The translations under genes were made by a program, and so were the position numbers. A DNA stretch of 57,584 nt from an uncultured bacterium (GTDB lineage: Bacteria > Fidelibacterota > UBA2242): NCBI GenBank assembly GCA_964546145.1, contig CAZJIU010000003.1, positions 1 to 57,584 on the forward strand, in the 5' to 3' direction. Positions 3,687-40,590 of this stretch are shown here, piece by piece. Position 1 is the stretch's first letter. The number at the start of each line of letters is the position of its first letter. The notes under the pieces are model-generated. The model had not been told where the DNA came from and did not search any database. It was given only the letters and a program-made list of their open reading frames with translations.

Positions 3687-5483
3687 TCAATGTTCCATCT
3701 TAAGCACCGCCAGAAATGCCTCCTGCGGGATTTCGACTCGTCCGACCTGTTTCATGCGTTTCTTACCTTCCCGCTGGCGTTCCAGCAGCTTCCGTTTACG
3801 GGTAATGTCACCGCCGTAACATTTAGCGGTAACATTCTTGCGCAGTGGCTTGACACTGGTACGGGCGATTACTTTACTGCCAATTGCCGCCTGGATGATC
3901 ACCTCAAACAACTGCTTGGGAATCAACTCGCGCAGCTTGTCACACAGCTCCCGCCCCTGATGAAAGGCCTTATCCCGATGGACAATCCAGGAAAGGGTAT
4001 CCACCGGTTCGCCATTAATCAGAATATCCAGTTTTATCAGATCACCGGGTCGAAAGCCCTTTGGTTCATAATCAAAAGAGGCATAGCCCCGCGATAACGA
4101 TTTTAATTTATCATAAAAATCAAACACAATCTCACCTAGCGGCAATTCATAAATCAACTGAACCTTGCCCACATCTAAATAATGAGTGGTTTTATAAATG
4201 CCGCGCTTCTCCTGGCAGAGTTTGAGCACATTGCCCAGATATTCAGTCAGGACAATAATCTCGGCTTTAACGTAGGGTTCCTGAACTGATTCAATCTCCC
4301 CGGCAGGCGGCATGTCAGAAGGATTATGAATTTCAACTACATTGCCGTTTCTCAAAATAGCCCGGTACCGGACATTTGGCATAGTCGTAATCAAATCCAG
4401 ATCAAATTCGCGCTCGAGTCTTTCCTGAACAATTTCCATGTGCAGAAGTCCCAGATAACCGCAGCGAAATCCAAACCCCAAGGCGTTGGAAGTCTCGGCT
4501 TCATAGACCAGGGCCGAGTCATTCAGTTTCATCTTTTCCAATGAACCACGCAGATTTTCAAAGTCTTCACTGTCCACCGGATACATGCCGCTGAAAACCA
4601 TTGGCTTAATTTCCCGATAACCCGATAAGGGTCTAGCAGCCGGTTTCGATTTGTGAGTAATTGTATCACCTACCCTGACTTTGGAAATATCCTTGACCCC
4701 GGCAACAAGATAGCCTACCTCCCCTGAAGCCAGCCGTTCAGTCTTTATCCGGCTCATTTTAAATATCCCAACTTCGGCTACTTCATAACCGGTATTGCCG
4801 GTAAAAAATCTAATCTGCTCCCCAACTCTGACCTGACCATCCATGATTCTGACATAAGGTATTGCTCCGCGGAAGGAATCGAAAGTCGAATCAAAGATCA
4901 GGGCTCGTAGAGGAGCGTCCGGATTATAAGGTGGAGGTGGAATCCGTTCGATAATGGCATCAAATACCTCAAGCACTCCCTGGCCGCTTTTGGCGCTGGT
5001 TAAAATCAATTCCGATTCCTGGCAGCCGATCAGATCCATCAATTGGCGCTTGGCACTCTTCAGATCCGCACCGACAAGATCAATTTTGTTGATGACCGGA
5101 ACAATCACCAGATTATTCTCCAGGGCAAGATAGGCGTTACTGACAGTCTGGGCTTCGACTCCCTGGGAAGTATCGACTAGCAGCAAAGCGCCCTCGCAAG
5201 CCGCCAGACTGCGGGAAACCTCGTAGCAAAAATCCACATGTCCGGGTGTATCAATCAGATTCAGAATGTAAGTTTTATTATCCCGGTGCTGATATTCCAT
5301 CCGAATCGGATGCGACTTGATTGTAATTCCCCGTTCCCGCTCCAGGTCCATGCTGTCCAGCACCTGCGATTTCATTTCGCGCTGGCTGATTGTATGGGTA
5401 ACCTCCAGCAGGCGATCGGCAAGAGTGGATTTTCCATGATCAATGTGGGCAATTATACAAAAATTACGAATATCCGGATTCAT
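3687..5483 (-). CDS. lepA: Translation elongation factor 4 (LepA)
   Basis: 598 aa. [33 protein letters not shown] and the LepA-specific C-terminal domain. Confidence 0.97.
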
Positions 5484-5807
5484 GGCTTAAAATTTACGGA
5501 TTTATAGACAAGATTAACAAGTTGGAGGATACGAAAAGACTTGAATACAGGATAAGCAGAACGTGCGAATCACTAATTTTTTCTTATGAAGATGATAGGG
5601 AGCATCGCTTACTAATGAGAATACCTACGGTAGGAGGTTGATAATAATGAAAGGACCTTTAAGATAATGTTAGCAATCCGCTATTGTTTAATGGTGGAAA
5701 TTGTTTAGTTAGCAACAATAACGTATCTCGATGGATATCAGATAGTTACAAACTTGGATATCTATATCTTTTTGTTAACAACGCTATTTTATTGTTTAAA
5801 GATATCT

Positions 5808-33266: not shown

Positions 33267-33899
33267 CTACTCATTCTCTGGACATGTCTTACGGATGTCG
33301 CCCAGCAGCTTTTCCAGCTGATCCGAATCTTCAAATACATTAAAGTGGTCAGTCTCTACAATTTTAACCGGATACCAGTCGGCAGCCTTCTTAATCCAGT
33401 GCTCATAGGCAATATTCAACATGTAAATATATTCCGGCGAGATGGTATTTTCAAAAGAACGTGAACGTTTTTTTATCCGGGTTAGCAAGGTGTCCACACT
33501 AGCTCGCAGGTAAATAATCAGATCGGGTTTTTTCAGATAAGCGGTCATTTCTTCGAAAAGCGCCCGATAGCTCTCCCAGTCGCGCTGACTCATATTTCCC
33601 ATCTCATACAGATTCCGGGCAAAAATCCCAACATCTTCGTAGATTGTCCGGTCCTGAACGGCGGAAAAGCCTGACTCCGTCATCTGTTTATGGGCCCTGA
33701 AGCGGTGGGATAGAAAATAAATTTGCAGGTTAAAGCTCCAGCGCTTCATATCCTCGTAAAAATCTTCCAGATAGGGATTGTTGATCACTGACTCATAATA
33801 AGCCCGCCAGCCAAACCGATTGGCGATGACATCGGTCATAGTGGTTTTCCCGACTCCAATATTGCCCGCTATCCCGATAAAGTAGGTTCTCTTATTCAT
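33267..33899 (-). CDS. Deoxynucleoside kinase (start at MNKRTYF)
   Basis: P-loop IAGNIGVGKTT and DRTIYED; dNK-family layout. Confidence 0.8.
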   Translation of the reverse strand: MNKRTYFIGIAGNIGVGKTTMTDVIANRFGWRAYYESVINNPYLEDFYEDMKRWSFNLQIYFLSHRFRAHKQMTESGFSAVQDRTIYEDVGIFARNLYEMGNMSQRDWESYRALFEEMTAYLKKPDLIIYLRASVDTLLTRIKKRSRSFENTISPEYIYMLNIAYEHWIKKAADWYPVKIVETDHFNVFEDSDQLEKLLGDIRKTCPENE

Positions 33900-35190
33900 C
33901 AACAATCTCTCCCAGAGCAATCACTCCACTTACACCATTGATCCGAATCCGTCTCATCTGATTAATCAATAACTGGCTGGAGCTAACTCTAACCGTAATA
34001 TAATTATCCGAGAGCCCTTCGAAAAGCCCCAATTCATTTTTCTTTTCAAATAAAACTATCAATTCCCGGCCAACAAAATTTTTTAGAAAACGTTTTTTTA
34101 ATGATTTGCCAAGATTACGGAGCTGTTCGGCACGCCCTTTCTTAATATATTCAGGAACAGAATTACTCAGGGTAACCGCAGAAGTCCCGGGTCGAGCTGA
34201 AAAGCGAAACACCTGCAAATAAGCCAGAGGCGAGCACTCAATCAAATGGAGCATTGTTTGGAAATGCGGCTCAGTCTCACCCGGAAAACCCACCATAACA
34301 TCCGTACCAATACAGACATCCGGAATGCTATCGGCAATTCTAGTAACTAACTCATGATACATTTTGGTAGTATAGTGTCGCTGCATCCGTTTCAAAATTG
34401 GCTCGGCACCATGCTGCAAAGGAATATGGAAATGGCGGCAGAACCGCGACTCTTTAGCCATCAAGTCAATCAGCCGGTCAGTTATTAGGTCAGGCTCGAT
34501 CGAACTAATGCGAATCCGTTTGATTCTGGTCTTTGCCAACAGTGATTCGACCAGAGTTGCTAAATCCACACAATTTTCGGCCGAATAGGTGCCAAGATTG
34601 ACGCCGGTCAGAACGATCTCTTGAAAACCCAGATCATCGAGCATTCGGGCTTCATTCAGAATTTGTATAAAATTCCGACTGCGGGCGCGACCCCGTAATA
34701 ATGGGATAATGCAATACGCACAGCGATAATCGCAGCCGTCCTGGATTTTTAAATGCGCCCGAAGCCGATCTCCCCGGGCAACAATTCCATCCGGCGGAAA
34801 AGTATAGCCTTGATCCTCATTTGTAACATAAATCCCGCTTTGGCCGTGTTCCATTTCTCTTAAAAATTCAGGGATGTGGTATTTCTCTTTATTGCCCAAC
34901 ACCAGAGTAACACCGGTCTGGTTCGAGAGCTCCTGCGCAGCCAGCTGCGCATAACAACCAACGACCATTATTTTCCCCTGCGGCGAGATGCGTCGGGCAG
35001 CAGCGATTGCGCCACGAGTTTTGGCTTCAGCCTGATGGGTTACCGCACAGGAATTGATAATTGTTACATCGGCGGGAATATTCGGACTAACTATTTGCCA
35101 GCCAAATTTTTGCAGCTCGTCTTGAACCGCATCGGACTCTGAATGATTCAAGCGACAACCGAGGGTCCGCAAACTTACGGTTTTGATCAA
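33892..35190 (-). CDS. mtaB: tRNA t6A37 methylthiotransferase MtaB (radical SAM MTTase)
   Basis: 432 aa. UPF0004 N-terminal domain (TLGCRLNHSESD), CDYRCAYC radical-SAM cluster, C-terminal TRAM-like domain. Confidence 0.8.
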   Translation of the reverse strand: MIKTVSLRTLGCRLNHSESDAVQDELQKFGWQIVSPNIPADVTIINSCAVTHQAEAKTRGAIAAARRISPQGKIMVVGCYAQLAAQELSNQTGVTLVLGNKEKYHIPEFLREMEHGQSGIYVTNEDQGYTFPPDGIVARGDRLRAHLKIQDGCDYRCAYCIIPLLRGRARSRNFIQILNEARMLDDLGFQEIVLTGVNLGTYSAENCVDLATLVESLLAKTRIKRIRISSIEPDLITDRLIDLMAKESRFCRHFHIPLQHGAEPILKRMQRHYTTKMYHELVTRIADSIPDVCIGTDVMVGFPGETEPHFQTMLHLIECSPLAYLQVFRFSARPGTSAVTLSNSVPEYIKKGRAEQLRNLGKSLKKRFLKNFVGRELIVLFEKKNELGLFEGLSDNYITVRVSSSQLLINQMRRIRINGVSGVIALGEIVDE

Positions 35191-36357: not shown

Positions 36358-37653
36358 TCAATCCTCTACTTCTCCAACCAGATCAAAGTCATCTGCCTTC
36401 AATATTTTAACTGAATCAATTGTTCCAATTTCAAGCTGCTTTCGCGCATGAACTAATACACTATTATCAATTTCAGGAGCATCCCAGACCGTTCGCCCCC
36501 GGTAACTGGTCCCTAGTGATTCCTCTATAATCACCCCAACAACCTGGCCTATCTTCGACTCGGCAAACTCACAGGCAATCGGCCATTGAATCTGCATTAC
36601 CAGCTCCTTACGTCGCTCTTTCTCAACCGGTGACACATTATCGGTCAATCCGGCTGCCCAGGTATCCTCTTCCGCTGAATAAGTAAATACTCCCAATCGT
36701 TCGAATCGGAGATCCTCAACCAAATCCAGCAGAAGCTCAAAATCCTCTTCAGTCTCACCCGGAAATCCAACCATTAATGAGGTTCGCAGAGCGATCCCGG
36801 GAATATCCCGGCGCAGCTGAAGCAGTTTCTGCCGCATCCTGGTAACCGCATATGATCTTTTCATCTTTCGTAAAATCCTGGGAGAAGCGTGCTGAATTGG
36901 AATATCCAGATAAGGACACAGCTCCTGATATTTCACAAAGAGTCCGTTCAGGCTTTTCGACCAGAAATCCGGATTGCAATACAGCAGTCGCACCCATGGA
37001 AACAGGCGCATTGCTAATAATTGATCCAATAAATCATACAGATTTACTCGCGGCACCAAATCCGAACCGTAGCGGGTCAAATCCTGAGCTATCAGAATCA
37101 GTTCCCTGACTCCCTTCTGGTGGAGGTATTCCGCTTCCTTTAACAAACTCTTTATCGAGCGGCTCTTCTGGTGACCACGCATTAGTGGAATGGAACAGAA
37201 ACTGCAGCGATTGTCGCACCCTTCGGCGATCTTCAGATACGCTAAATAAGGCGGTGTCAATAGTGACCGCACTCGCTCAATATTTCCACAAGCAACTGAG
37301 TGACCGACAAGATCTTTTACAATCCAGTCAACCTCATCCACGCCATAAATCCCGTCAACTTCTGGCAATTCATACCGTAGCTGCTCGGGATAGCGCTGGG
37401 AAAGGCAACCGCTAATGATAATCTTTTTGGTCGGATCTCTTTTCTTGAGTTCGATATTTTCCAGAATAATCTCGATAGATTCATCCCGGGCAAAATCAAT
37501 AAAGCCGCAAGTATTAATAATAATGACGGAAGCTACTGCCGGATCTGGTGTATAACGATAACCAACCTTTTCCAAGTTGCCTCTTAAAATCTCGGAATCC
37601 ACCGTATTTTTGGGACATCCCAGGGTAACAATCGAAAAAGACTTGGATATCAT
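36358..37653 (-). CDS. rimO: Ribosomal protein S12 methylthiotransferase RimO
   Basis: 431 aa. LGCPKNTVDSE, CDNRCSFC, C-terminal TRAM. Confidence 0.85.
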   Translation of the reverse strand: MISKSFSIVTLGCPKNTVDSEILRGNLEKVGYRYTPDPAVASVIIINTCGFIDFARDESIEIILENIELKKRDPTKKIIISGCLSQRYPEQLRYELPEVDGIYGVDEVDWIVKDLVGHSVACGNIERVRSLLTPPYLAYLKIAEGCDNRCSFCSIPLMRGHQKSRSIKSLLKEAEYLHQKGVRELILIAQDLTRYGSDLVPRVNLYDLLDQLLAMRLFPWVRLLYCNPDFWSKSLNGLFVKYQELCPYLDIPIQHASPRILRKMKRSYAVTRMRQKLLQLRRDIPGIALRTSLMVGFPGETEEDFELLLDLVEDLRFERLGVFTYSAEEDTWAAGLTDNVSPVEKERRKELVMQIQWPIACEFAESKIGQVVGVIIEESLGTSYRGRTVWDAPEIDNSVLVHARKQLEIGTIDSVKILKADDFDLVGEVED

Positions 37654-37670: not shown

Positions 37671-39170
37671 CTAACTTGGAACTGAGAGTAGAGCATCAAT
37701 AAATTCAGCCAGTTCAAACTCAACCAGATCGCCGAGCTGCTCACCGACTCCAAGATAGCGAATGGGAATATTCATTTTTTGGTGAATAGCCAAAACTGCC
37801 CCGCCTTTGGCGGTACCATCCAGCTTGGTCAAGATGATTCCGGTTACACCAATCGAATTCATGAACTCCTGCGCTTGAGCGATGCCGTTCTGACCGGTAT
37901 TGCCATCCAGCACCAGCCAGATTTCGTGCGGTGCCGCGGGAATCAGCTTGCCGATTACCCGTTTGATTTTACCTAACTCTGCCATCAGATTCGATTTAGT
38001 GTGTAGTCGGCCAGCGGTATCAATTAAAACAATATCATGACCCTTTGCTTGCGCCGATTTGATGGCATCGAACACCACAGATGATGGATCCTTGCCTTGA
38101 GGATTGCCCACGAAATCGGCACCGGTTCGTTCCGCCCAGATTTTCAACTGGTCATAGGCAGCTGCTCGAAAAGTATCCGCAGCAACCATCAAAACCTGTT
38201 TACCTTCAGCTATATAACGATGAGCCAATTTGGCGATACTGGTCGTCTTGCCGGTACCATTGACACCAATAATTAAGATAATCCATGGCTTGGAGTGACT
38301 CGAAAAAACCGGGGTGCCTTGATGAATTAGAGCTTTCATCTCAGCTTTTAAAATATCATTTAGATTGTCGGCCTCTTTACGATCTAATAGTCGGAGTCGG
38401 TCAATTAAACTCTCCGTCAGTTCCACACCCATATCCGCAGCGAGGAGAGTCTCCTCGATCGCTGTCAACATATCCTGCTCAATCCGAAAATATTTACCCA
38501 CTAACGGCAACCGTGCGGCAATGCCAGTCCCGGTTTTCTGCAAACCCTGAGAAAGCCGATTTTCCTGGCCCGGAACCGCCATTTTCTTTTTTGCTGCAAT
38601 AATCTGCTTGATAAAAGTAATGATATATTGCACCCAGGATATAAATAGGAGAGCGATGGAAGTCCACATGATCGGATTAATCCATCGCCCCAGAGTATTA
38701 GAATAGATAAACGCCAGCACCGTTGCCGTGGTAAAATAGATTGAGACCTTACTGGTCAAATTCGCATAGGGAGTAATCTTGCAGTTATTCATCAGATAAA
38801 CACTAAACAGAGCAATTGTCAGGTCTCTGACAGCCAGGATAATAAAATAAAAGATCGGCATCCGATCGGTAAAAATGAGAAACAACATTACACTAAAAAT
38901 TACGACCTTATCCGCAAAAGGATCCAGAACCTTGCCTAGCTCAGTAATCTCATGGCTGACCCGCGCCAGCCAACCATCCAACATATCAGAAGCAATGGCA
39001 ATAATGATAAAAATTAATGCGATTTTGCCTCGGCCGGCACGCAGGAAGTACAAAATCGGCAGGGTCAAGAAAACCCGCAAAATTGATATCATATTCGAAA
39101 GAGTCACAACCCGATCAGGGTTCATTTCCTCATACTTGCGTCGGACAATATTCTGCTTCACTATTCCCAT
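37671..39170 (-). CDS. ftsY: Fusion protein: N-terminal CDP-alcohol phosphatidyltransferase (PgsA-like, aa 1-190) + SRP receptor FtsY N/G domains (aa ~197-499)
   Basis: One uninterrupted 499-aa frame. DMLDGWLARVSHEITELGKVLDPFADKV is a complete DGxxARx8Gx3Dx3D motif. IGVNGTGKTTSIAKLA, DTAGRL and TKLDGTAKGG are the FtsY GTPase motifs. An in-frame ATG sits at 38582. Confidence 0.8.
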   Translation of the reverse strand: MGIVKQNIVRRKYEEMNPDRVVTLSNMISILRVFLTLPILYFLRAGRGKIALIFIIIAIASDMLDGWLARVSHEITELGKVLDPFADKVVIFSVMLFLIFTDRMPIFYFIILAVRDLTIALFSVYLMNNCKITPYANLTSKVSIYFTTATVLAFIYSNTLGRWINPIMWTSIALLFISWVQYIITFIKQIIAAKKKMAVPGQENRLSQGLQKTGTGIAARLPLVGKYFRIEQDMLTAIEETLLAADMGVELTESLIDRLRLLDRKEADNLNDILKAEMKALIHQGTPVFSSHSKPWIILIIGVNGTGKTTSIAKLAHRYIAEGKQVLMVAADTFRAAAYDQLKIWAERTGADFVGNPQGKDPSSVVFDAIKSAQAKGHDIVLIDTAGRLHTKSNLMAELGKIKRVIGKLIPAAPHEIWLVLDGNTGQNGIAQAQEFMNSIGVTGIILTKLDGTAKGGAVLAIHQKMNIPIRYLGVGEQLGDLVEFELAEFIDALLSVPS

Positions 39171-39176
39171 ACTTCT

Positions 39177-39914
39177 TTAGCCCTCTATCCAATAGTCATC
39201 AAATAAATGAATACCGACCATTTTCTTAACTTCTGTACGAGTTTTCAACTCGCTCAAGTTACCCCTAAAAATAAGGCTTCCATGGTGCAAAATCCAGCAT
39301 TTCTGGCAGATTTTTCTAATCAAATTAAAATCATGCGAGACAACAATCACCTGAATGTCTAATAGACAGTCGTTCAAAATCGCGACCAACTGCGCTTTCC
39401 CCGTTGGCCCCATCGCAATCGTTGGTTCATCCAGAATCAATAAATCCGGCATGAGCGACATGCTCAAACAAAGGGCCAGCCGACGGACTTCGCCGCCACT
39501 CAATTCGAATCCGCATCTTGATTCAATCTCATGATAACCAACACCAAATTTTTTGAGGAAATTTACCAGGCGGTCTTTAACCTTAATGCCATCTGTCCGG
39601 TGGGCAACAATCCGGTCAACCGTATCTTGCACTCGGACACCAAGGAAGATTCTCTCCGGAAACTGGGGGGAATAGATAATCCGAGGTGCGGCAGCTGGCG
39701 ATCCTTTGAAACAAAATCTAAAATCACCGATCTGAGGATGAATAATCCCCGCCAGGATTTTACTTAAGGTTGTTTTTCCTGAGCCTGATAATCCATATAG
39801 CCCTAATATGCCCTGAAATTTGTGCGTCAGCTCCTCCATCACCAGCCGAAAAGCCATCTCAGGCTGAAAGCAGTGGCGAATACAATTTATATCCAATAGC
39901 AGTTCAGGCTTCAT
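39177..39914 (-). CDS. ABC transporter ATP-binding protein, ECF EcfA2-like (start at MKPELL)
   Basis: GLSGSGKTT, LSGGEVRRLALC, LLILDEPT, VVSHD. Confidence 0.75.
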   Translation of the reverse strand: MKPELLLDINCIRHCFQPEMAFRLVMEELTHKFQGILGLYGLSGSGKTTLSKILAGIIHPQIGDFRFCFKGSPAAAPRIIYSPQFPERIFLGVRVQDTVDRIVAHRTDGIKVKDRLVNFLKKFGVGYHEIESRCGFELSGGEVRRLALCLSMSLMPDLLILDEPTIAMGPTGKAQLVAILNDCLLDIQVIVVSHDFNLIRKICQKCWILHHGSLIFRGNLSELKTRTEVKKMVGIHLFDDYWIEG

Positions 39915-40590
39915 CGGTCCGTTTCCCGAATCGTCTAAAATAATCCTGAACCTCTCCCGCAAAAATCACCTGCCCTTGATTTAAACAGATGACATAATCC
40001 GCCAGGCGGATTTCGTGATCTTCCTGGCTGATCCAGAGAATGCTCAACTGCTCTTGACCCAGTTTTTTTACCTTCGATTGTAAATCAATTTGAGCAAAAA
40101 TGTCAAGGAACGAACAGGGCTCATCTAGGATTAAAATCTGCGGCTGACTGATCATCATTCCCGCCAGGGCCAGCTGCTGTTTCTCCCCGCCAGAAAGATT
40201 ATTAGGCGATTCAGCCCGCCGTTCAAACAGCTCGATTTCCTTCAAAGCATTTTCTACTTTTACCCTCATCATACGCGGCTCGATACCGCGGTTTTCAAGA
40301 TTAAACGCGAGCTCTCGCTCAATATTGAAATGAATCAGCTGATCATCGGGATTCTGAAACAGATAACCAAAATGAAAACCCGAGCGATTAATTACGTCCC
40401 CGGGAAATATGATTCTGCCTTGATCCGGTTTCAATAATCCGGCAATGAGCTTTACCAATGTAGTTTTACCTGAACCGCGGCTGCCAGTGATGACTACCCA
40501 GCGCTGGAGGGGAATAGATAAACTTAGATGCTCGAAAATCGGTTGGTTATTTTTATAGTGAAAAGTCAGCTCAAATAATTCAATATTCAA
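39904..40590 (-). CDS. ABC transporter ATP-binding protein, ECF EcfA1/CbiO-like, with the H-loop His replaced
   Basis: GSRGSGKTT, FQNPDDQL, LSGGEKQQLALA, ILILDEP. The H-loop position reads WISQE. Confidence 0.75.
   Translation of the reverse strand: MNIELFELTFHYKNNQPIFEHLSLSIPLQRWVVITGSRGSGKTTLVKLIAGLLKPDQGRIIFPGDVINRSGFHFGYLFQNPDDQLIHFNIERELAFNLENRGIEPRMMRVKVENALKEIELFERRAESPNNLSGGEKQQLALAGMMISQPQILILDEPCSFLDIFAQIDLQSKVKKLGQEQLSILWISQEDHEIRLADYVICLNQGQVIFAGEVQDYFRRFGKRTDEA

Follow-up and report, generated by a model that had tools for sequence, protein, structure and literature searches.

A PgsA-like phosphatidyltransferase domain continuous with the signal recognition particle receptor FtsY in Candidatus Marinimicrobia

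The stretch of DNA analyzed here, called the window below, comprises 57,584 nucleotides (nt) from an uncultured bacterium that GTDB places in the Fidelibacterota, UBA2242 (NCBI GenBank assembly GCA_964546145.1, contig CAZJIU010000003.1, positions 1 to 57,584). Its minus strand carries, at 37671..39170, a single open reading frame (ORF) of 499 amino acids (aa) with an ATG start and zero internal stops, both in the ORF list and in the sequence itself. The frame runs from a CDP-alcohol phosphatidyltransferase domain, similar to the phosphatidylglycerophosphate (PGP) synthase PgsA, into FtsY, the receptor of the signal recognition particle (SRP). A first-pass annotation, made from the letters alone, had described such an uninterrupted frame; this is confirmed, and the strand can be added.

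Two domains in one frame

Pfam assigns CDP-OH_P_transf to aa 23-175 of the fusion (E 1.2e-25, 91 bits against a threshold of 22). The catalytic signature DMLDGWLARVSHEITELGKVLDPFADKV occupies aa 62-89 (nt 38904-38987, minus strand), and the FtsY motifs GVNGTGKTT, DTAGRL and TKLDGTAKGG lie at aa 302-310, 384-389 and 448-457, respectively. The halves meet at IIAAKKK-MAVPGQ, where Met197 is encoded by an ATG at nt 38582-38580. Every string quoted in the first-pass annotation, as well as its junction position, is present as described. The coordinates of these and the neighboring features are given in Table 1.

AlphaFold2 (AF2) models of the fusion, with a predicted local distance difference test score (pLDDT) of 73-76, contain an interfacial N-terminal helix followed by six transmembrane (TM) helices at aa 18-44, 48-72, 77-100, 106-130, 138-155 and 157-198. 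At aa 196-203 the pLDDT falls below 50, which predicts disorder in the linker. The six predicted TM helices run via a linker of 10-25 aa into the NG domain (the N and G domains of the receptor), which would be permanently tethered to the membrane. In the solved PgsA, the termini and the active site are cytoplasmic (PMC8640168). Both termini and the active site of the enzyme domain are therefore predicted to lie on the cytoplasmic face, which would place FtsY on the correct side of the membrane.

Table 1. Features of the fusion, its flanking genes, and example loci of the unfused gene pair (positions of the window unless a locus is named)
Feature	Position	Strand	Basis
Fusion ORF, PgsA-like CDP-alcohol phosphatidyltransferase and FtsY	37671..39170	-	ORF list, Pfam, NCBIfam, identical protein P0001, ~50 fused homolog clusters
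N-terminal amphipathic basic helix, aa 4-15, before TM1; presumed cytoplasmic interfacial	39126..39161	-	AF2 helix aa 4-15 / 2-14, low pLDDT
Six-TM enzyme domain, aa 18-195 (PF01066 aa 23-175), predicted membrane anchor	38586..39119	-	AF2, Foldseek, Pfam
Catalytic signature D62xxD65G66xxA69R70x8G79xxxD83xxxD87, then K88	38910..38987	-	Regular expression and translation; conservation
Variable basic linker, predicted disordered, aa 193-204, with in-frame ATG of Met197 at 38580-38582	38559..38594	-	pLDDT, homolog alignment
FtsY alphaN1 / putative lipid-binding-helix region, aa 205-228, RLSQGLQKTGTGIAARLPLVGKYF	38487..38558	-	Conservation; start of stand-alone FtsY
FtsY N domain, SRP54_N helical bundle, aa 230-277	38340..38483	-	PF02881 E 1.3e-6; model resembles FtsY NG crystal structures
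FtsY G domain, SRP54-type GTPase, aa 297-495	37686..38282	-	PF00448 E 6.5e-76; TIGR00064; Foldseek
Two upstream ABC ATPase genes	39904-40590 and 39177-39962	-	Pfam; same order in unfused L001/L002 and fused L086
RimO/MiaB-type radical-SAM methylthiotransferase, directly downstream	36358..37653	-	UPF0004, Radical_SAM and TRAM_2; same place in L001, L003, L086, L090
Example loci of the pgsA-like and ftsY pair	L067 4998-6498; L072 4944-6561; L025 1455-3012; L042 3451-5083		

The FtsY half was judged by the G1 (GxxGxGKT), G3 (DTAGR) and G4 (TKxD) motifs together with the helical bundle of the N domain. The FtsY equivalog model TIGR00064 of NCBIfam, which has a cutoff of 260.7 bits, gives 326 bits for the whole protein and 328 when only the C-terminal 303 aa are scored, while the ffh and SRP54 models remain below their own cutoffs. 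The motifs GVNGTGKTT, DTAGRLH and TKLDGTAKGG are invariant in 36 fused homologs, and the modeled half superposes on FtsY NG structures in Foldseek with a TMt of 0.8-0.9. By these scores, motifs and fold, the C-terminal part is a full member of the FtsY family, complete except for the A domain.

FtsY of Escherichia coli requires contact with the membrane. A helix at its A-N junction (residues 195-207) binds anionic lipid, and phosphatidylglycerol (PG) and cardiolipin raise its GTPase activity and the assembly of the SRP-FtsY complex ~100-fold (PMC2928010). The fused proteins have a conserved segment, LxxGLxKTxxxIAxRLPLxGKFF, just before the N domain (pLDDT 53-65), likened to this helix by position and pattern. 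Within it, conservation across the fused family reaches at least 90% at L206, G209, L210, K212, T213, I217, A218, P222 and L223. In unfused relatives, the separate FtsY of 294 aa begins exactly at this segment (MINFGLNKTGRFLASRLPLLGRFF), that is, right after the linker of the fusion. One protein, P0049 (462 aa), is otherwise identical to the fused P0031 (503 aa) and does not contain the segment LxxGLxKT...GKFF; its shortening is either a real deletion or a variant of assembly or gene calling.

The N-terminal part is, from its family profile and motifs, a member of the CDP-alcohol phosphatidyltransferase superfamily (PF01066). The first-pass annotation had considered all catalytic residues to be intact, and the eight of the motif (D62, D65, G66, A69, R70, G79, D83 and D87) are indeed not only present but invariant in the 36 fused proteins and in 14 stand-alone orthologs. 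R115, K141 and Y182 are likewise invariant across 51-100% identity. A catalytically dead domain was rejected on these sequence grounds.

Which reaction the domain would catalyze is less firmly indicated. The annotation as a PGP synthase stands as the best guess on the combined evidence of profile models, PDB matches and fold. PgsA (TIGR00560) is the top NCBIfam model, although its 72.4 bits lie below the cutoff of 109.1; the others score 65 against 240 (ClsA), 33 against 107 (PssA) and 29 against 170 (PIPS). Stand-alone orthologs and the syntenic genes upstream of ftsY in other phyla obtain 75-112 bits with TIGR00560 (83-112 for the syntenic orthologs taken by themselves), and one of them, from Ignavibacteriaceae (L025), passes the cutoff at 112 bits. 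The best fold match in the PDB is PgsA of Staphylococcus aureus (SaPgsA; 7DRK/7DRJ) with a TM-score of 0.71-0.76 and a root-mean-square deviation of 2.6 Å, ahead of phosphatidylinositol phosphate (PIP) synthases (0.55-0.59) and phosphatidylserine (PS) synthase (0.37). Foldseek matches at E<0.1 are CDP-alcohol phosphotransferase (CDP-AP) structures only, and PgsA is the sole PDB match at the sequence level (E 2e-6 with the single sequence, 9e-15 with a family profile).

In SaPgsA, the 3'-phosphate of PGP is held by K83, R110, R118, K137 and Y181 (PMC8640168). Three of these five residues of the glycerol 3-phosphate (G3P) site have counterparts here, namely K88, R115 and Y182. The remaining two are not conserved: the equivalent of R118 is S or G, and those of K137/T138 are S/I. 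K141, the counterpart of SaPgsA K135, does not vary; at position 138, many relatives have K and the window protein has L. The canonical GKxKT reads GKVS(I/V) throughout the FCB group (Fibrobacterota, Chlorobiota and Bacteroidota), including Chlorobi genes that lie away from ftsY. Considering these residues and scores, the domain would be PgsA-like, with G3P as the most probable acceptor. Family profile models, motif regular expressions and tblastn found neither a second PF01066 gene nor a second ftsY in the 57.6-kb window.

The position of K88 (nt 38907-38909), the counterpart of the PGP-phosphate ligand K83, behaves differently in the two gene arrangements. All 36 fused proteins have this lysine. 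Of 13 stand-alone orthologs from Marinimicrobia, ~10 have A, S, G or C instead, C being the residue in that of locus L001. The enzyme may therefore be under a different constraint when fused.

Distribution of the fusion and its origin from a gene pair

Homologs were collected from 5.8 billion proteins in clusters at 90% identity. A word-indexed search with the N-terminal domain alone gave 24 matches; an exhaustive profile search revealed the limits of the family and a second fused lineage. A protein identical over all 499 aa (P0001) is present in the database, and the same fusion, which the first pass had proposed to look for in relatives, is found in ~50 clusters of 482-510 aa that carry PF01066 and PF00448 and are 51-90% identical to the window protein. 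They are drawn from independent JGI, ENA, NCBI and Logan assemblies (metagenomes and metagenome-assembled genomes, MAGs). All named clusters belong to Candidatus Marinimicrobia/Neomarinimicrobiota, a group of uncultured marine bacteria, and the database annotation reads just "FtsY". The MAGs with the fusion include GCA_029935835.1. The mean pairwise identity among the 36 fused proteins is 55% for the enzyme domain and 65% for FtsY. With their motifs invariant at such divergence, both halves are, as far as sequence comparison can tell, under purifying selection.

The linker, by comparison with the two domains, is free to vary. It is rich in K, E and S and differs in length and sequence, the stretch from Y182 to L206 covering 11-38 residues in the 36 homologs. 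A Met occurs in only two of the 36 linkers, that of the window protein and one other; position 197 is Val in relatives at 85-90% identity and mostly Thr elsewhere. A separate FtsY cistron beginning at the in-frame ATG, which had been put forward as the alternative to a fusion protein, is thus not a feature of the family, and a conserved internal start is ruled out.

The second fused lineage is represented by P0151, a protein of 525 aa with 39% identity to the window protein. Its gene (L086 5243-6820, GCA_001577215.1 LSCC01000073) lies in the same KdtA-ABC-ABC-X-RimO synteny, and the lineage was seen in one NCBI and two independent SRA assemblies, with four more fused relatives (P0289-P0292) at 77-87% identity. 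The next-closest FtsY homologs of P0151 (~60% identity) are all unfused and 312-330 aa long. The linker of P0151 can be recognized as a descendant of the C-terminal tail found in P0144, an enzyme that stands alone.

The history of the fusion was read from a neighbor-joining tree of the NG region, which is crude and should be taken as indicative only. In this tree, P0151 is sister to the unfused sequence of "Marinimicrobia bacterium 46_43" (L012). Two unfused proteins of the main clade, P0084 and P0054, branch from within fused sequences, and P0031, which is fused, falls close to unfused ones. These sequence relationships point to a minimum of two independent fusions, and to some fissions, within the Marinimicrobia.

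The P0054 lineage (L003-L005) is instructive in this respect. Its FtsY is nearest to that of the fused P0005, yet it is unfused, 332 aa long, and begins with a TM helix of its own followed by RRRK (MYDIIIKIGAIFLIVLICFVFVYFIRRRK...; L003 6551-8999). The CDP-OH gene in the syntenic upstream place encodes 207 aa and is divergent, with 32% identity; an uncharacterized 210-aa polytopic gene is inserted there as well. The helix and RRRK weakly resemble TM6 and RRRRK of fused relatives, in the hydrophobic stretch and the basic residues, and may be what is left of TM6 from a former fusion. Since this FtsY lost the fusion and still has a TM helix, integral anchoring of the receptor seems to be what selection retains in the clade. 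Downstream of rimO, the same lineage has an insertion with a BrnT/BrnA toxin-antitoxin pair and a DUF3800 gene.

The arrangement from which the fusion arose can be seen in unfused relatives. In two Marinimicrobia loci (L001/L002, contigs of 223-238 kb), the gene order is identical to that of the window, and the place of the fusion is taken by two genes, CDP-OH (212 aa) and ftsY (294 aa), with an overlap of 8 nt (ATGATTAA). The product of the first is orthologous to the N-terminal domain (53% identity). In L008, the CDP-OH ORF and ftsY share one frame with only TGA and four codons between them (5480-5720), so that one mutation would be enough to fuse them. This locus is one point mutation or one stop-codon readthrough short of a fusion, and its FtsY starts with MIQKFFNKIAG, a typical amphipathic lipid-binding N-terminal motif that is in neither the 294-aa nor the fused forms.

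One genome of each GTDB species was scanned and tblastn was then applied, which yielded 80 loci (L006-L085). The genes are fused in five Neomarinimicrobiota species representatives (L006, L007, L009, L010 and L011) and unfused but adjacent in four Marinimicrobia. In total, 35 of the 80 loci have a CDP-OH gene directly upstream of ftsY and in the same orientation, with the two genes either overlapping or separated by <320 nt. Beyond the Marinimicrobia, these comprise ten Ignavibacteria, seven Balneolaceae/Fodinibius, several other Bacteroidota MAGs, one Rhodothermales and one Kapaibacterium. Fifteen Chlorobiaceae lack the pair, as do the loci of the scan from Latescibacterota, Gemmatimonadota and Proteobacteria. 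A protein annotated by JGI as "PgsA" (P0140) is encoded by a gene that overlaps a downstream ftsY in an unrelated neighborhood. Given this distribution across Marinimicrobia, other FCB phyla and P0140, the succession of a pgsA-like gene and ftsY is, on comparative grounds, an old arrangement found widely in the FCB group, from which the fused state is derived. The possibility raised in the first pass that relatives keep two separate genes holds for many Marinimicrobia and FCB phyla, in which the genes are separate yet adjacent and often overlapping; it does not hold for the many others in which the fused state is conserved.

According to Pfam, the order of genes in the window is Crp-TatC-polyprenyl synthase-GT9-KdtA-ABC-ABC-fusion-RimO-NTP transferase-MiaB, and the minus strand holds nearly every protein-coding gene. 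As listed, the ORFs of the two ABC ATPases overlap by 59 nt (39904-39962) and have TTG starts, while their homologs in L001 and L086 are separate or slightly overlapping; the true start of the ORF at 39177-39962 is probably further inside. Two radical-SAM paralogs, RimO-like (36358-37653, with TRAM_2) and MiaB-like (33892-35190), flank the NTP-transferase gene, an arrangement kept in Marinimicrobia relatives. The sole RNA gene detected in the window by Rfam and tRNA scans is a tRNA-Ser(GCT) at 2234-2324 on the plus strand.

Explanations for the fused state

The reading preferred here, to which we give a probability of about 70%, is that the product is a bifunctional, single-polypeptide inner-membrane protein in which the enzyme domain anchors an FtsY without an A domain. 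The ancestral Marinimicrobia FtsY would have consisted of the NG domain only, and its mRNA would have carried, ahead of ftsY, a cistron for a polytopic protein inserted co-translationally. Merging of the neighboring, overlapping pgsA-like and ftsY genes, at least twice in Marinimicrobia, would then have made the anchoring permanent. In the resulting protein, the enzyme domain would act as an integral anchor in cis, in a role like that of SRbeta for SRalpha or of the hydrophobic segment of Streptomyces FtsY, while the alphaN1 helix would keep acting as a lipid-sensing switch. The enzyme domain would most likely still be catalytically active, and both activities would be made 1:1 at one membrane site. 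The persistence and recurrence of the fused state, together with the TM helix of the P0054 lineage, suggest that permanent anchoring has been selected.

Several points weigh against this reading. That the product remains single and uncleaved is an assumption made from the sequence, and the A-rich stretch before Met197, together with weak Shine-Dalgarno (SD) use, leaves room for internal initiation in this genome. The two genes have been joined, and also separated again, on several occasions, and unfused relatives are common, so the fusion may be nearly neutral rather than adaptive. The confidence of the AF2 models is moderate. On the enzymatic side, the PgsA score below its cutoff and the replaced counterparts of R118 and K137/T138 have to be considered. 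The sequence comparisons show the architecture and its conservation, the origin from adjacent genes, the intact motifs and the predicted topology. From these we infer a single uncleaved product, catalytic activity and G3P as acceptor; nearness to new anionic lipid may bring a benefit. Whether proximity brings an advantage or the link is close to neutral are two versions of the story that appear about equally plausible, each being a possibility that falls well short of even odds.

Neutrality would mean that overlapping, translationally coupled genes in compact genomes became fused by loss of a stop or a small frameshift, and that the halves work independently with the link merely tolerated. Such a merger is possible, if somewhat doubtful. 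A single mutation suffices from the ancestral state, as the 8-nt overlap in L001 and the TGA plus four codons in L008 illustrate; fused and unfused proteins are scattered over the FtsY tree; and the linker is unconserved and comes from the C-terminal tail of the upstream protein. NG domains also reportedly tolerate arbitrary membrane anchors (Zelazny 1997). A merely tolerated link is harder to reconcile with a fused state kept down to 51% identity in a large clade and with its independent recurrence. Moreover, the lineage that lost the fusion gained or kept a TM helix on FtsY and did not return to the soluble 294-aa form.

The adaptive counterpart is a functional module in which FtsY, tethered to the enzyme that makes PGP, sits in or creates a microdomain of anionic lipid that activates FtsY and SecYEG, so that protein insertion is coupled to lipid growth. 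This idea is tentative and on the unlikely side. It draws on the retention of the pair across distant FCB lineages with differing flanks (35 of 80 loci, and P0140), on at least two independent fusions, and on the catalytic residues, which are invariant in the fused forms, K88 being invariant in these only. It also agrees with the ~100-fold activation of E. coli FtsY bound by PG and cardiolipin (PMC2928010), the segment likened to the helix involved being conserved here. However, the product of the enzyme would be PGP, which becomes PG only after a phosphatase step, and lipids diffuse fast. The acceptor specificity of the enzyme is presumptive, frequent fission speaks against a strong need for a covalent link, and co-expression alone can explain the adjacency of the genes in an operon. 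The suggestion from the first pass that the fusion would couple protein targeting to the site of PG synthesis belongs to this line of thought. In its broadest form, both the pair and the fusion would constitute one module, in which the enzyme committing CDP-diacylglycerol (CDP-DAG) to anionic phospholipid both carries and regulates the SRP receptor; we regard this as rather unlikely.

Two products could also arise from the one ORF, with FtsY produced separately by internal initiation at Met197 or by proteolysis of the linker; the cell would then have an ordinary PgsA-like enzyme beside an FtsY that is soluble or peripheral. In the window, an in-frame ATG does stand exactly at the domain boundary, after an A-rich stretch, and the linker is predicted to be disordered. 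No SD-like motif was seen upstream of this ATG, which is not decisive given that SD use is weak in this organism (17 of 48 genes). Of 35 fused homologs, however, only one is not changed to V, T or another residue at Met197, the relatives at 85-90% identity being among those changed, and a conserved cleavage motif was not seen in a linker that is free to vary. This makes separate products improbable.

Least probable by far is an artefact of a lost stop or a catalytically dead relic kept as an anchor, for which only the sub-threshold PgsA score and the two divergent substrate-site positions speak, against an architecture found in ~55 clusters (JGI, ENA, NCBI and Logan) and five GTDB species representatives, the invariance of the eight metal- and CDP-binding motif residues and of R115, K141 and Y182 over 51-100% identity, and an enzyme domain that evolves just slightly faster than FtsY (55% versus 65%). 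An error confined to this assembly, such as a lost stop or a frameshift, was considered in the first-pass annotation and is excluded by independent assemblies with the same architecture: the identical protein, the ~50 fused clusters and the second lineage in three unrelated samples.

Related receptors and wider meaning

How bacterial FtsY reaches the membrane and becomes activated there is debated, with dynamic lipid binding by amphipathic helices, binding to SecYEG and co-translational targeting as the proposed routes. FtsY of the Streptomyces type has an N-terminal hydrophobic segment as its membrane anchor (Maeda et al. 2008). There, as in the fusion, the NG domain is tethered to the membrane within one polypeptide in place of the acidic A domain, and the P0054 lineage of Marinimicrobia has exactly such a single-helix form. 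The fusion differs in that its predicted anchor is a whole six-TM enzyme with an intact active site, acquired from a neighboring gene. An engineered chimera of a LacY segment and FtsY-NG, made by Zelazny, Seluanov, Cooper and Bibi in 1997 (cited in PMC2780400, ref B23), was reportedly fully functional in E. coli. It likewise places the NG domain behind an unrelated polytopic membrane polypeptide and would show that the architecture can work; its anchor was artificial and inert, whereas the Marinimicrobia protein is natural and conserved, with a presumed lipid-synthesis enzyme as anchor.

Permanent integral anchoring of an SRP54-type receptor GTPase is also described for SRalpha-SRbeta (PMC2780400). 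In eukaryotes, the anchor is provided in trans by a separate GTPase subunit with one TM helix, unlike the fusion, where it would be provided in cis by an enzyme. The S. aureus PgsA structures (7DRJ/7DRK) share with the enzyme half the six-TM fold, the D1xxD2GxxAR...GxxxD3xxxD4 signature and the equivalents of K83, R110 and Y181; the sub-cutoff score, the replacement of R118 and K137/T138 and the C-terminal FtsY of 300 aa set the fusion apart. With FtsY of the E. coli type, the second half has in common the NG domain and the G motifs, and its conserved segment ahead of the N domain is a putative counterpart of the amphipathic helix by which the E. coli protein binds anionic lipid (PMC2928010). 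In contrast to that protein, the acidic A domain is missing here, and membrane association is predicted to be constitutive and not dynamic. Literature searches did not find a description of FtsY fused to a CDP-alcohol phosphatidyltransferase, nor of a pgsA-like gene followed by ftsY, and the conserved gene pair thus appears to be undescribed.

For metabolic reconstructions of Marinimicrobia, an annotation that reads only "FtsY" hides a probable gene of phospholipid synthesis. For specialists of SRP, the fusion is a surprising variant of the membrane-anchored receptor, the functional significance of which we infer from the comparisons above. Its clade-wide presence would mean that constitutive anchoring of the receptor is compatible with a free-living lifestyle, and that receptors without an A domain can gain anchoring by capturing a neighboring membrane protein. 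The captured partner is, strikingly, a PgsA-like enzyme of the anionic-lipid branch, and the order of a pgsA-like gene followed by ftsY in several FCB phyla hints separately, and in a way open to testing, that lipid synthesis and protein targeting may be co-regulated. To our knowledge, the role of anionic lipids in this pathway has been established only in vitro and in E. coli mutants. The fusion represents a ready-made natural construct for asking if nearness to PG synthesis affects SRP targeting. Should the two halves indeed form a module, the insertion of membrane proteins would be coupled in space and stoichiometry to the synthesis of anionic lipid, and the protein would be a natural "Rosetta-stone" fusion for the long-known dependence of FtsY and SecYEG on PG and cardiolipin, which has so far had no mechanistic place.

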